The notes below the pieces were generated by a model. The model did no database searches. It saw only the letters and a list, made by a program, of their open reading frames with translations, and had not been told where the DNA came from. From Octopus vulgaris (lineage: Eukaryota): 64,000 nt of DNA. Shown piece by piece: positions 3,189 through 61,746 of this stretch (its first letter is position 1; each line of letters starts with the position of its first letter). The translations under genes and the position numbers were made by a program. The stretch is taken from positions 46,624,001 through 46,688,000 of the forward strand of contig OX597816.1 in NCBI GenBank assembly GCA_951406725.2. Direction: 5' to 3'.

Positions 3189-3801
3189 GGAATTAAACAC
3201 AGGTGTTATTCAAATCTTTATACTTCCGACATGTGTTTTAAAGAAAACATTGGTATTATTCCAGAAGGAATAAAATTATGTAAAACAATGCAAATTTCTC
3301 ATCAGGGAATAAAAGAGAAGCAAAATGCATCAATGAGACATTTTAACCGAATGTGATTACTGCATATATGAAGGGAATGCTGGTACATTATTTTAAAAAG
3401 AAACCGTAAATAGATATAACGTTAAAGGCAATTTATAGAAAATGGAGGAGGAGGAGGAAGAGAAAAATTAGCAGAAAACTAAAAGTGGAGAAATATAGTG
3501 TGATAGGTGAATAGAAATAAAGATTAAAAGTGTGGAAATAGATATATTTAGTGGAAGTGAAATGTAAGAAGATAGTTAAAGGTCGAATTTTATAGACTGG
3601 TAGAAATCACTTACAGGAACTAAAGTCATGTTTTTGCCAATGTTTGCGACGATAAACACATTCTTGAAACATGTTTACAAGCGGATTCTCTGAGATCAGT
3701 ATGAAATACAGTTCATCGTTATAAAACGAACAAAAAGATTTACCTTTATCATAAGGAAAGGATATAGATAGAATATTCCAATTCAAATTGTTTTTTATGT
3801 T
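3185..3801 (-). mobile_element. Penelope-like retroelement 3' remnant (end of ORF plus pLTR region)
   Basis: Minus frame 3801-3607 reads NIKNNLNWNILSISFPYDKGKSFCSFYNDELYFILISENPLVNMFQECVYRRKHWQKHDFSSCK*. This resembles the W.IL...PY...C.LC..E...IL...LN..E...C.H..K C-terminus after the Penelope GIY-YIG domain. It is followed by a decayed HHR and ends at a (TA)n tract. Confidence 0.75.
3224..3309 (-). ncRNA. Degenerate type I hammerhead ribozyme motif
   Basis: Minus strand TTCC-CTGATGA-GAAA...(CATTG/CAATG, TATTCC/GGAATA hairpin)...TTTC-TTT-AAAAC-ACAT-GTC-GGAA. Stem I is TTCC/GGAA and the triplet is GUC, but the GAAA core is mutated to AAAA. Confidence 0.6.
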
Positions 3802-41242: not shown

Positions 41243-41870
41243 AAGTTTAATACTGCTTGGCCAATTCCATCATCTTACTACAATTGATTAGTAATCGCAA
41301 GTAATAAGAACTGACAGAGGTATTTTGTGTTTGTTTGATTGTGATAACAGCATTGTCATCCTAACACTTTCATATCATGGTATCATAATATAGTGTTGTG
41401 AGATATATAATGACCATTTCACTACACTGTGATGTATGCATTTGCGTCTTATTAATTCAGTGAATTCAGCAAATGGTGTTTTGTTTTGTATTCTCAAACA
41501 AAACGAAACTTTCTTTTGTGTTTAGAATCAATGAGAAAATTATACATGCACAGTCAATATTGCATTTATCAAAATTATCAAATGGATGAAAGGTTGATTC
41601 AAAATGATTTTAAGAGGAATCCATAGATAAATCCAGTGAAAGTTCAGATCCTTACAGCCATTTCAAGAACATGTGGAACGAAATAGGTGAACCATTTTCC
41701 ATCCATTTCTATTATCCACATTTCTTTCTTCAGAGATGTCTTAAGAGAATTTCAAAGATTTAGAAAAAGTTTTTTTAAATATGTTAAAAAAAATTTTAAT
41801 TTTAAAAATTTGAAGTTTGGAGCAAAAGTACAAGCTATTCACATATATATATATATACATATATATATAT

Positions 41871-42070
41871 ACAAACATGAAAACACAAAGAGAAAACACA
41901 ACAACACGAGGACGTGGAACAAATATAGTATTATTGGACGCTCAGGAAGGAAGGGAAGAAGGAGGGTTTAATGTTTCGAGCGGAGCTCTTCGTCAGAAAC
42001 ATAGGAAAAGGAAAGATCCAGAGAAGAGAAGATGGAGGGAAAAAAATCGCCAACAGTACACACGTGGTCG
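41871..42070 (-). mobile_element. Short Penelope-like/retrozyme-like insert between microsatellites
   Basis: 200-bp CpG-containing block bounded by (TA)n and (CA)n(TA)n, carrying an HHR-like motif. Confidence 0.6.
41966..42000 (-). ncRNA. Minimal type I hammerhead-like motif
   Basis: GTTT-CTGACGA-A-GAGC-TCC-GCTC-GAAAC-ATT-AAAC. Stem I is GTTT/AAAC and stem II is GAGC/GCTC. Stem III is reduced (GAAACATT, probably from GAAACGTT). Confidence 0.65.
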
Positions 42071-43373
42071 CACACACACATATATATATATATATCATTA
42101 GGGTACCAAGATGTGTGTTTTGCATAGCTAATATACAAGCTCCTATCCTTATGAATTTAAACTTGCTGTAAAATGAGAAAACGAGATCTGTGAAATAGGC
42201 AGCTTAGTGTGAAAATGAAATCAACCACTTTCATTGCTATTTAAGCATTCAGGATACCACTGATTAAATCCATAGACAACATTAAAATGTAAACAATTTA
42301 TTCTTAAATTCATTTACATAATGCTACAAAGTTTATGTTCAGACAATAATTACTAACACAAATAGCACCGCAGCTCACTTTGGCCAAGTTCTTGTGGATT
42401 GCATTTATACAGAAAATCTGAGTACACCAGTAGATAACCATAACTTTATAGATTCAATAGAAATGTTACTTTATTATATCGATTAAAAAACAACGAATTT
42501 ATGAACTAAATATTGACAGATGGTTCCAATGAACATGACTTGAACAAAACTTATTGAAAGCTGATCCATTCTGTATGTGGGAGTTTTTTCAAAATCTAGG
42601 GCAGTTGATCAGTTTGTGCTCTCATTGTGAAAAATTAGGTCTCTTTCTAGGCCACATAAAAATGATTAAAATACCTAAGCTGCTCTTTCAAAGCACTATC
42701 TATGAACAAATGATATAGGTAAATTTCATTTGATCACAAATCACATTAATTTTCCAAAATAATTAGTCAATTTCACTATGCATGCACATATGTGTGTATG
42801 TTCGTTTTATCTAGCAAGGATGTGCTAAAGTGATTAATGCAAAAAATAATGATAAATAAATAAAGAATATGTGGTGTCCCATAATATTTTGTGTTACCAC
42901 TAAAGGACCATGTGATGATACTAGGAGAGATACACTGGAATGATTTCCTATTGCCCTAGTTAAATATGCAACCAGTATAAGCTTTAAAAAAACACCTGTA
43001 GATGCTTATAGTAATAACGTGCATTGACTTACTGTGCTTGTTTATAATTGAAGGTACCACGTTGTTTGTATGTGGTTTCAGTCAGTCAGATAGAATGCTA
43101 ATGACCATTTTACAAATATGCCAACTTCATTTACATTGTATTAGCTTGACTTCTTCAAATGTTGGGCAAATATTCAAATTTGCATATCCCACTCCCACCT
43201 TATTTTGATACATAAAGGAGATCTTCACCAGTCAAATATTCTTTATAGTCTAAATCCACTCTCTCTAGTCATTTGAGGTTGATTGTGCTGATTCAGAAAT
43301 ACATTCCATTTTCATCATATTCTCCTAATTCTGTGTCCCTTCCTGAAGCAAATATTATCTTTTATGTTTATAA

Positions 43374-57176: not shown

Positions 57177-57200
57177 ATATATGTATGTATGTATATATAT

Positions 57201-57232
<32 letters not shown>

Positions 57233-59987
57233 GTGTATATATATGTATGTATATATGTGTGTATGTATATATATGTATGTATGTATATATATGTATATGT
57301 GTATGTATGTATGTATATGTATGTATATGTATGTATATATGTATGTATGTATGTATGTATATATATGTATGTATGTATATATGTATATATGTATATATGT
57401 ATGTATATATGTATGTATATATGTATGTATATATGTGTATATGTATGTATATATGTGTATATGTATGTATATATGTGTATATGTATATATATATGTGTAT
57501 GTGTATATGTATATATGTGTATATGTGTGTATGTATATATGTGTATATGTATGTATATATGTGTATATGTATGTATATATGTGTATATGTATGTATATAT
57601 GTGTATATGTATGTGTATATATATATATGTATGTATGTATATATGTGTATATGTATGTATATATATATATATATGTATGTATGTGTATATATATATATGT
57701 ATGTATGTATGTGTATATATATATGTATGTGTATATATATATGTATGTATATATATATGTATGTATATATATATATATGTATGGATATATGTGTATATAT
57801 ATATGTATGTATGTATATATATATATATGTATGTATATATATGTGTGTATATATGTATATATATATATGTATGTATGTATATATATATATATGTATGTAT
57901 GTATGTATGTATATATATGTATGTGTATATATGTATGTGTATATATGTATGTATATATATATATGTATATATGTATGTATATATATATATGTATATATGT
58001 ATGTATATATATATATGTATATATGTATGTATATATATATATGTATATATGTATGTATATATATATATGTATGTATATATATGTATATATGTATGTATAT
58101 ATATATATGTATGTAATATATATATGTGTATATATATATATGTATGTATGTATATGTGTATATATATATATGTATGTATGTATATGTGTATATATATGTA
58201 TGTATATGTGTATATATATGTATGTATGTATATGTGTGTATATATATGTATGTATGTATATGTGTGTATATATATGTATGTATGTATATGTGTGTATATA
58301 TATATATGTATGTATATGTGTGTATATATATATATATGTATGTATATGTGTGTATATATATATATATGTATGTATATGTGTGTATATATATATATATATG
58401 TATGTATATATGTGTATATATATGTATGTATATGTGTGTATATATATATATGTATGTATATGTGTGTATATATATATATATGTATGTATATGTGTGTATA
58501 TATATATATATGTATGTATATATGTGTGTATATATGTGTGTATATATATATATGTATGTATGTGTGTATATATATATATGTATGTATGTGTGTATATATA
58601 TATGTATGTATGTGTGTATATATATATATGTATGTATGTGTGTATATATATATATGTATGTATATATGTGTGTGTATATATATATATGTATGTATATATG
58701 TGTGTATATATATATATGTATGTATATATGTGTGTATATATATATATGTATGTATATATGTGTGTATATATATATGTGTGTATATATATATATGTATGTA
58801 TGTGTGTGTATGTATATATGTATGTATGTGTGTGTATGTATATATGTATGTATGTGTGTGTATATATATGTATGTATGTGTGTGTATGTATATATGTGTG
58901 TATATATATATGTATGTATATATGTGTGTATATATATATATGTATGTATATATGTGTGTATATATATATGTATGTATATATGTGTGTATATATATATGTA
59001 TGTATATATGTGTGTATATATATGTATGTATGTGTGTATATATATATATGTATGTATATATGTGTATATATATATATATGTATGTATATGTGTATATATA
59101 TATATGTATGTATATATGTGTATATATATATATGTATGTATATATGTGTATATATATATATGTATGTATATATGTGTATATATATATGTGTGTATATATG
59201 TGTGTATGTATATATGTGTGTATATATATATGTATGTATATATGTGTGTATATATATATGTATGTATATATGTGTATATATGTATGTATATATGTGTATA
59301 TATGTATGTATATATGTGTATGTATGTATGTATATATGTGTATATATATGTATATGTGTTATATATGTATATATGTGTATATATATATATGTATGTATAT
59401 GTGTGTATATATATGTATGTATGTATATGTGTGTATATATGTATGTATGTATATGTGTGTATATATATATGTATGTATATGTGTGTATATATATATGTAT
59501 GTATATGTGTGTATATATATATGTATGTATATGTGTATATATATATATATGTATAGTGTATATATATATATGTATGTATATGTGTATATATATATATGTA
59601 TGTATATGTGTATATATATATATGTATGTATATATGTGTATATATATATATGTATGTATATATATGTGTATATATATGTATGTATATATGTGTATATATA
59701 TATGTATGTATATATGTGTATATATATATGTGTATGTAGGTATATATGTGTATATATATATATGTATGTATGTATATATGTGTATATATATATGTATGTA
59801 TATATGTGTATATATATATGTATGTATATATGTGTATATATATATGTATGTATATATGTGTATATATATATGTATGTATATATGTGTATATATATATGTA
59901 TGTATGTATATATGTGTATATATATATGTATGTATGTATGTATATATGTGTATATATATATGTATGTATGTATGTATATATGTGTAT
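57177..59987. repeat. Giant compound (TA)/(TG) microsatellite array, part 1
   Basis: 2.8 kb of almost strictly alternating T and purine. Confidence 0.98.
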
Positions 59988-60649
59988 AAAATAAATATAA
60001 GAGAGTGGTCACTATATTGATCACTCTAGCACCAGTTAATCCAAAAGGTTTCAACCACGAAAATACATGTTTCCCATGAAAGCCAGTACGACTGTTAGCT
60101 CACACGGACAGGGCAAATAAAAAATAACAAAAATACAGATTATTTTGGGACAATTGTTTCGCTATTAATGAATTAAATGTAATATTACTTACAATAATCC
60201 ATTTGTAGCTCATCAGCCAAGACTATCTGGATGAAATCCACTCAATCACACGCCAGATTTTACCATAACGATAAATACGCGTGTGGTTCAATTGATTACA
60301 TCCGACGTTATAATTCAAATGCCCCAACCAACAGCGCGCCAAACTCTCACGGAAAACAAATACAGCATTTAGAAATAAATGCAGCATAATTATAATTAAT
60401 TAATAAGGGTGAGAGAATTAGATACTAATTTAATAGTATATTTATTCCACACCAAGTGGCCTAGTGCTACGAGAAACCTGGATTATTATAATATTTTATA
60501 ACATATTATAATATTTTCACAAAATAAATATAAGAGAGTGGTCACTATATTGATCACTCTAGCACCAGTTAATCCAAAAGGTTTCAACCACGAAAATACA
60601 TGTTTCCCATGAAAGCCAGTATGACTGTTAGCTCACACGGACAGGGCAA
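59988..60649 (-). mobile_element. Retrozyme-like / Penelope pLTR-derived non-coding element, 533-nt unit x1.24
   Basis: 129-bp direct repeats 59988-60116 and 60521-60649 (one mismatch, 60089/60622). No credible ORF. Contains an intact HHR. Embedded in the TA/TG array. Confidence 0.85.
60145..60220 (-). ncRNA. Type I hammerhead ribozyme, intact core, extended stem II
   Basis: TTGG-CTGATGA-GCTA-[41 nt]-TAGC-GAAAC-AATT-GTC^CCAA. All core nucleotides are present. Stem I is TTGG/CCAA, stem II is GCTA/TAGC, and stem III is palindromic (ACAATTGT). Predicted cleavage 3' of position 60149. Confidence 0.88.
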
Positions 60650-61671
60650 TATGTGTATATATATGTATGTATGTGTATATATATGTATGTATGTGTATAT
60701 ATATATATGTATGTGTATATATATATGTATGTGTATATGTATATATATATGTATATGTATATATATATGTATATGTATATGTATGTGTATATGTATATAT
60801 ATATGTATATGTATATATATATGTATATGTATATGTATGTGTATATGTATATATATATGTATATGTATATATATATGTATATGTATATATATATGTATGT
60901 GTATATATATATGTATGTGTATATATATATATGTATGTGTATATATATATATGTATGTGTATAAATATGTATGTGTATATATATATATGTATGTATGTGT
61001 ATATATATATGTATGTATGTATGTGTATATATATATATGTATGTATGTGTATATATATATATGTATGTATGTGTATATATATATGTATGTATGTGTATAT
61101 ATATATGTATGTATGTATATGTGTATATATATATATGTATGTATGTATGTGTATATATATATGTATGTATATATGTCTGTATATATATGTATATGTGTGT
61201 GTATATATGTGTATGTATATATGTGTGTATATATGTGTATGTATATATGTGTATGTATATATGTGTATGTATATATGTGTATGTATATATGTGTATGTAT
61301 ATATGTGTATGTATATATGTGTATGTATATATGTGTATGTATATATATGTATGTATATGTGTGTATGTATATATATGTATGTATATGTGTGTATATATAT
61401 ATATATGTATGTATATGTGTGTATATATATATATGTGTGTATATATATATATATATGTATGTATATGTGTGTATATATATATATATATGTATGTATATGT
61501 GTATATATATATATATGTATGTATATGTGTGTATATATATATATATGTATGTATATGTGTGTATATATATATATATATGTATGTATATGTGTGTATATAT
61601 ATATATATATGTATGTATATGTGTGTATATATATATATGTATGTATATGTGTGTATATATATATATATGTA

Positions 61672-61746
<75 letters not shown>

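Follow-up and report, generated by a model that had tools for sequence, protein, structure and literature searches.

A stretch of 64,000 nucleotides of Octopus vulgaris DNA (contig OX597816.1; the whole stretch is called the window here) contains a hammerhead-like motif with a very long helix II and a helix III of two base pairs. The motif lies in an island of 662 nt inside a 6.8-kb TA/TATG microsatellite and is the only ribozyme of that island. The locus raises the question of whether the motif is a genuine hammerhead, how it would cut with so weak a helix III, and what kind of element carried it into a microsatellite. Our main reading, to which we give a probability of roughly three in four, is that this is a long-helix-II hammerhead of type I, that it would be cut after C60149 mainly as a dimer, and that it belongs to a young 533-nt retrozyme likely copied into TA microsatellites by the RT-endonuclease of a Hydra-clade Penelope-like element (PLE). 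The features are listed in Table 1.

Table 1. Features of the hammerhead locus, in window positions
Feature	Position	Strand	Basis or remark
TA/TATG microsatellite hosting the insertion	57177..64000	.	sequence
1.24-unit insertion of the 533-nt non-coding tandem repeat (retrozyme)	59988..60649	-	unit positions 33-533, then 1-161, numbered from the base that follows the predicted cut
End site A (unit ~160), 3' end of the window insertion	59988..60010	-	end mapping; a second, internal copy ends at 60521
Stem I, 3' strand, carrying U1.7 at 60142	60136..60148	-	folding; candidate tertiary partner A60165
C17, predicted cleavage 3' of the base	60149	-	hammerhead consensus
GAAA core; 2-bp helix III capped by a palindromic tetraloop (ACAAUUGU)	60150..60160	-	core match, folding
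Helix II, 49 nt	60161..60209	-	basal 4 bp GCUA/UAGC, CA/AA internal loop, 9 bp (one G-U), 1x2 loop, 5 bp, GUAAUA loop
Catalytic core C3-A9	60210..60216	-	N7 (60212) is U in the window copy
Stem I, 5' strand	60217..60229	-	6 bp including a C-A mismatch, then an internal loop and 4 outer pairs
End site B (unit ~291), second fixed 3' end in the family	60391..60420	-	end mapping; internal in the window copy
Direct repeat (129 nt) of 59988-60116 that makes the partial tandem terminally redundant	60521..60649	-	spacing 533

Structure of the motif and its relatives in the genome

A sequence check placed the hammerhead on the minus strand, with CUGAUGA at 60216-60210 and GAAA at 60160-60157. The sequence-only reading had drawn this canonical core with the strand unstated, together with an unusually long stem II and a 2-bp stem III around a palindrome. 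The core reads as drawn, the 49 nt of helix II (60209-60161) are predicted to fold as drawn, and the 2-bp helix and its palindrome, ACAAUUGU, were found at 60157-60150. The coordinates given for the motif, 60145-60220, locate it correctly and miss the extent of stem I, in which 60229-60217 pairs with 60148-60136. The CA/AA internal loop of helix II occupies the usual site of loop 2, and the helix II insert folded alone at -13.8 kcal/mol (z -4.9 versus mononucleotide shuffles). The minimum-energy fold of the monomer did not include the 2-bp helix III. An inhibitory pairing between the core and the cut strand, seen in the fold with C at N7, was considered as a general feature and rejected because N7 is often A.

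Standard short-stem descriptors had been expected to miss a motif of this kind, and Rfam did so. The search of 60000-60650 gave 0 matches at E<=10, none of nine related loci (0/9) was matched at the gathering score, and only microsatellite artefacts were returned across the whole window. We read this miss as a limit of the models that arises from the helix II insert, not as a missing fold. When the genome (2.8 Gb, 227 contigs) was searched with the hammerhead core pattern, a helix II of 22-48 nt gave 416 matches compared to 13 in the reversed control, and one of 50-77 nt gave 7,582 compared to 10, about 8,000 against 23 in sum; both patterns exclude the gap length of the 533-nt family itself. 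Given these margins over the controls, the window motif is not a chance occurrence. The long helix II, called unusual in the sequence-only reading, is not peculiar to the window copy and is the norm in the octopus genome. Rfam overlooks some 8,000 hammerhead-like motifs in this single animal, and surveys with short-loop descriptors may therefore undercount hammerheads.

To compare the related motifs we extracted 72 from first-listed and hand-picked loci, a non-random sample, and dropped 15 duplicates to leave 57 distinct motifs. Stem I, which was left unconstrained by the search pattern, was paired in 0.82 of cells compared to 0.52 in shuffled sets (maximum 0.61). Across the 12 relatives that could be aligned, pairing held in 87% of cells, and the covariation score of 0.343 was reached in 0/500 shuffles, a test of the sort that kinship inflates. 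Two-sided changes in these relatives were concentrated in stem I; the helix II extension had few (2/10 and 0/5 pairs) and is supported mostly by one-sided changes. Covariation among genomic copies and conservation of the core among paralogues, both proposed as checks by the sequence-only reading, thus came out in its favour, with stem I covarying, the loop III palindrome widely kept (see below) and the core intact in 221/226 units of the 533-nt family. With a CUGANGA, GAAA and UH core, three helices, an open stem I and covariation, the window motif is almost certainly a type I hammerhead under selection.

The minimal hammerheads of metazoan PLEs, as described in PMC4209133, are alike in their palindromic helix III region and have a helix II larger than usual (7-8 bp). 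The window motif differs from them in its canonical 6-bp stem I with an internal loop, in having no extra base after A9, and in its far longer and interrupted helix II. Elsewhere in the window, at 41870-42075 on the minus strand (core at 41996), there is a minimal hammerhead-like motif with an extra A after A9 and a short helix II. It lies within a TA-flanked repeat of ~200 nt that has 10 matches among the fetched loci, where a coding partner was not found.

Self-complementarity of helix III and probable cleavage as a dimer

Loop III was a perfect palindrome in 42 of the 57 distinct motifs, comprising 12 different tetramers, whereas the null gave a mean of 6.7 and a maximum of 16. With G-U pairs allowed, 51/57 were self-complementary. 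This comparison of sequences indicates that the weak palindromic helix III is selected for self-complementarity, and the excess over the null makes cleavage of the dimer type likely. Computed energies of helix III were +2.4 kcal/mol for the hairpin and -6.4 kcal/mol for the 8-bp duplex of two copies. From the covariation we infer that two ribozymes would pair through their palindromic loops III, forming a stable helix III that would allow cleavage, and that cleavage of the window-type hammerhead is probably dominated by dimers. Since it holds a single ribozyme, the window copy could dimerise only in trans.

The sequence-only reading had suggested from the weak palindromic stem III that the motif may cleave only in tandem transcripts. 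Dimeric cleavage is likely but the idea is not new, as metazoan type I motifs are usually described with short palindromic helices III that cut as dimers (PMC4209133; PMC3088659; PMC7229834). The newt/axolotl motif HHR_Amex1, as presented in PMC7229834, is alike in its very weak helix III, its palindromic tetraloop and the dimer-dependent cleavage expected of it. It differs in loop 2, which in the octopus motif is replaced by an internal loop and a 39-nt hairpin. In vitro, 8/9 dimers of Xenopus retrozymes are reported as uncut in the available text of Li et al. 2026 (10.64898/2026.07.22.740005), which counts against our main reading.

A tertiary contact between U1.7 and an A is described for full-length hammerheads (PMC11875169, in the text available). 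Here the candidate partner A was present in 16/20 motifs with U1.7 and in 5/26 without it, in families that are not independent and with 11/57 motifs omitted for poor stems. This co-occurrence lends some weight to an alternative in which the hammerhead cuts well as a monomer, its fold stabilised by the long helix II or by a protein, and the palindrome is incidental. Coral and mussel retrozymes are described as cutting as monomers (PMC7229834), and the ribozyme of Poseidon, a PLE of Anolis, as protein-assisted (PMC11167929), both of which would suit it. An incidental palindrome does not account for the keeping of 12 different palindromes across families, or of self-complementarity in 51/57 motifs, and the unfavourable hairpin and stable duplex also argue against monomer cleavage. 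Moreover, the axolotl motif, with a single pair and a palindromic tetraloop, was cut to 6% as a monomer and much better as a dimer (PMC7229834, in the part consulted). We therefore consider efficient monomer cleavage improbable and retain cleavage as a dimer. In the window subtype the helix II extension starts after 4 bp with an internal loop, and it is the A on the 3' side of this loop that tends to accompany U1.7. Because of this position the extension looks as if it had been grafted onto loop 2, and the subtype would likely keep the U1.7-A contact.

The 533-nt retrozyme and its insertion ends

The island consists of 1.24 copies of a 533-nt unit, because its 129-nt direct repeat is spaced by 533. 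With 40 of 729 candidates scored, the unit had 197 genomic matches, and most of the full-length ones were 99-100% identical; an exact 35-mer of helix II occurred 337 times in the genome and 0 times in the control. Variation in the core of the 226 units was mainly at N7, which was C in 147, A in 75, G in 2, U in 1 and a gap in 1. Relative to the common haplotype the window copy has two CpG-type changes, one of them at N7, and it is probably a dead-end daughter.

The longest stop-free frame in the unit is 63 aa. The ribozyme strand folded as a circle at -154.7 kcal/mol with 69% of bases paired (z -9.2, 40 shuffles), and the antisense strand at -118.9. Tandem arrays in TA targets reached 11.6 units, and target duplications of 15 and 14 nt were found at the two non-TA loci tested. 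These are tandem non-coding units with a type I hammerhead, of low GC and self-paired, flanked by target duplications of more than 4 bp. By every feature testable here the 533-nt element is a non-LTR retrozyme. As described in PMC7229834 and 10.64898/2026.07.22.740005, metazoan non-LTR retrozymes share all of these properties as well as the co-occurrence with PLEs. The unit length of 533 nt exceeds the 170-400 nt given in PMC7229834 and falls inside the 51-972 range of the Li et al. preprint (10.64898/2026.07.22.740005). The octopus retrozyme is set apart from those elements by its helix II of 49 nt; it also has two fixed ends and arms placed head to head, neither of which is described for them in the text consulted. 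Our literature search, with supplements and figures outside its scope, returned nothing on long-helix-II retrozymes, cephalopod retrozymes or coupled ends.

Other tandem families were seen alongside. A 594-nt family (L174:100-1700) contains a long-helix motif of related type, together with an internal copy, in inverted orientation, of the sequence that follows the cut. A family of 399-404 nt (L080, L135, L073) has a 44-nt helix II with a UGCA loop, and one of its arrays (L082) ends exactly at the predicted cut.

To examine how the 533-nt element inserts, we mapped the ends of 60 loci. Every main 3' end in them reached one of two unit positions, ~160 (A) or ~291 (B), or stopped just before it, and in most cases (TA)n came next. 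Head-to-head insertions made up 35/60, of which 32 were strictly A+B and none A+A or B+B; in the remaining 3/35 one or both ends were called just short of A or B, at mismatches. The 25 single-arm loci comprised 12 A and 13 B. The same ends recur in an older subfamily of about 75% identity, with A+B at 6 loci and 1 locus unclear. These ends suggest that a helper would nick both target strands and prime reverse transcription at unit ~160 and ~291, one site per DNA end, after which each of the two cDNAs would extend over several units before they are joined head to head. Two-site priming driven by a PLE is, in our judgement, quite likely. Twin priming of the L1 style without displacement was tried and rejected, as by hand count ~4/26 loci have an arm whose start is no more than 15 nt away from the opposite end site, with ~3 expected.

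Inverted arms might also come from snap-back copying of the first cDNA instead of a second priming on RNA. Several loci (L035, L191, L192, L031), in which the starts of the two arms almost coincide on the unit, have the look of such copying. Nevertheless, in 6/32 strict A+B loci neither arm could be contained in the other, and snap-back gives no reason for the second end to fall at the other site every time. It is accordingly very unlikely, and we keep to two primings. Repeated variants occurred in both arms at 18 loci and 5 variants were confined to one arm. Variants common to both arms point to one template or source for both, so that the two primings would take place on one RNA or on RNAs of one source.

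The anole element Poseidon, in the available text of Frangieh et al. 2024 (PMC11167929), is alike in that its RT starts at two internal sites, which set the tail seen in the genome. There, the two strands of the target are each cut and extended, and a protein dimer is predicted. The start sites showed no strand difference in that work in vitro, whereas the genomic insertions described here couple one site to each end. By analogy, the start sites and two-strand extension of Poseidon may supply the integration mechanism of the retrozyme.

Contigs from three studies, in runs presumed to be RNA, bear on transcription of the element. On the plus strand, the loose ends over the ribozyme carried 9, 10 and 6 changes, all of them T>C; the run type is a guess, as none of the listed runs containing the unit is recorded as RNA, and one, X15, is of unknown kind and so does not serve as a DNA control. 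These changes are A>G on the ribozyme strand and hit A14 and A15.1, and in the genome no A>G cluster was found in 328 unit alignments (0/328). The pattern is a signature of A-to-I hyper-editing, from which it would follow that the ribozyme strand is transcribed and is a substrate of ADAR. Such editing may explain the sequence heterogeneity of retrozyme RNA that was left open in mussels. In five other organisms (runs X12, X16-X20), 45-70% of the words of the 533-nt unit were present, and organism D gave a closed 563-nt contig with 5 differences.

Depending on the event, the template may be either a circle closed by ligation or a linear multimer left uncut. At 13 loci a private variant was present in every unit, often in both arms, which fits copying round a circle; 10 variants were patchy within arrays, and the diverged subfamily at L199 was left out of the private-variant count. 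Circles are shown for other animal retrozymes (PMC7229834, in the text available). Closed unitigs of 563 nt (533+30) occur among the presumed-RNA contigs and fit a circle or a tandem array equally, since contigs cannot show ends or circles. The competing account has arrays copied from long uncut transcripts and extended by unequal exchange, with the ribozyme trimming the 5' end only and no copying of circles. It draws on the patchy variants common to both arms in L049 and L035, which fit a mixed multimer and not a monomer circle, and on L191, whose two arms begin at positions 1 and 4 of the unit, which would suit an enzyme running off a cut end. Poseidon insertion in vitro was also unaffected by ribozyme mutants, according to the text consulted (PMC11167929). 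What it does not readily explain are the 13 loci with a private variant in every unit; the closed unitigs and the known circles of other retrozymes count against it with the reservation given above for the unitigs. A search for insertions ending at the predicted cut gave no enrichment and no peak (98 overlapping matches compared to 34 in the control, ~4 distinct loci at offset 0; L082, the single clear case, was not used), and arm starts lay near the cut in 6/95 cases (p 0.05). We put circles as a main template at even odds, and copying from linear transcripts only slightly below that.

Coding relatives and a candidate helper

A PLE origin of retrozymes has already been argued (Li et al. 2026, 10.64898/2026.07.22.740005, in its available text). 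To look for a helper, we examined the reading frames near the ribozymes. A Pfam scan of 77 of 108 such ORFs returned no PLE domain, a negative that is false because one scanned ORF, adjoining a long-helix motif, is a Hydra endonuclease remnant. The very common long-helix family with an ATAT loop proved to be the terminal ribozyme of a coding element, lying ~700 nt downstream of a Hydra-type ORF in 21/30 loci. Two Hydra-type families are intact: one of 717 aa, with 2,590-nt tandem units, a 30-nt helix II and a variant core, and one of 984 aa, with a 57-nt helix II and an AAUU or GAUU loop. In an old coding family helix II exceeds 70 nt. In the hammerhead of the young 2,590-nt Hydra-type tandem unit at L270:2244-4834, position 4 is C and GAAA is preceded by an additional U. 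The top protein homologue came from Argonauta, which fits an octopus host.

Three candidate helpers (L347, L270, L239) carry DKT (3/3), CxCx5C (2/3, missing in L239), TA targeting and a hammerhead, and by eye lack CCHH. On these features, which they share with the Hydra clade as described in Craig et al. 2021, including (TA)n targeting, their proteins match that clade, a placement made by motifs and not by a tree. Hammerheads were detected in the clade in that paper, whose available text does not describe a long helix II; Hydra-1_Obim is listed in the supplement of PMC8557442. The proteins of L347 and L239 have long asparagine-rich inserts between the RT thumb and the endonuclease.

The coding Hydra relatives resemble the retrozyme in their tandem and inverted layout and in the two-end rule. 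One of each end was found in 13/14 readable inverted insertions of the 717-aa family (ends 40 and 107; L275, with an N run, left out) and in 11/11 of the 984-aa family (ends about 37 and 155). The 533-nt element itself has no ORF with RT and C-terminal GIY-YIG, is non-coding, and differs from the Hydra clade further in lacking clear DNA homology. The tails of the Hydra families in this genome measure 67-155 nt, as against 30-40 for the clade as described. Repeated searches for homology between the unit and coding elements gave nothing clear, the best likeness being 79.5% over 44 nt to one Hydra-type family (E 0.003). The retrozyme works like a non-autonomous partner and not like a member of the clade, and a Hydra-clade PLE is the probable helper.

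The helper could instead be an active Neptune-type element or another PLE family, the long helix being merely inherited from an old Hydra terminal repeat. An intact Neptune-type family of 781 aa does target TA; its two ends are separated by about 40 nt, and 2/2 inverted copies combine one end with the other. Moreover, an end motif common to the retrozyme and any Hydra family was not seen. Its ribozyme, however, is the minimal U3-A8 form with a short helix II, whereas Hydra families carry the long-helix, tetraloop type, and Hydra tails of 67-155 nt resemble the 131 nt of the retrozyme. With its own motif minimal, Neptune was rejected as parent of the long-helix ribozyme, and a Neptune-type or other helper is unlikely. 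A Hydra-clade helper remains our preferred reading.

Together, these results tie the long-helix hammerhead form to Hydra-clade elements and reveal a near-strict rule of one short and one long end, common to a parasite and to intact coding families in the same genome. The rule offers a concrete test of PLE tail making, inverted insertions and circle templates. A broader proposal, which we advance tentatively and regard as somewhat doubtful, is that Hydra-clade elements and their non-coding parasites use an undescribed, library-invisible type I subclass with helix II grafts of 30-75 nt. In this proposal they would integrate by obligately asymmetric twin priming, in which a protein dimer uses two fixed sites of one RNA, one per DNA end, and rolls round a ribozyme-made circle, and ADAR hyper-editing of the core would be a host brake.

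Two minor observations concern coding elements. An intact Neptune-type element at L169:244-5490 has an upstream open frame of 479 aa and a U3-A8 minimal hammerhead. In the window, a fragment on the minus strand at 3616-3786 is 54% identical to the C-terminus of a Hydra-type protein.
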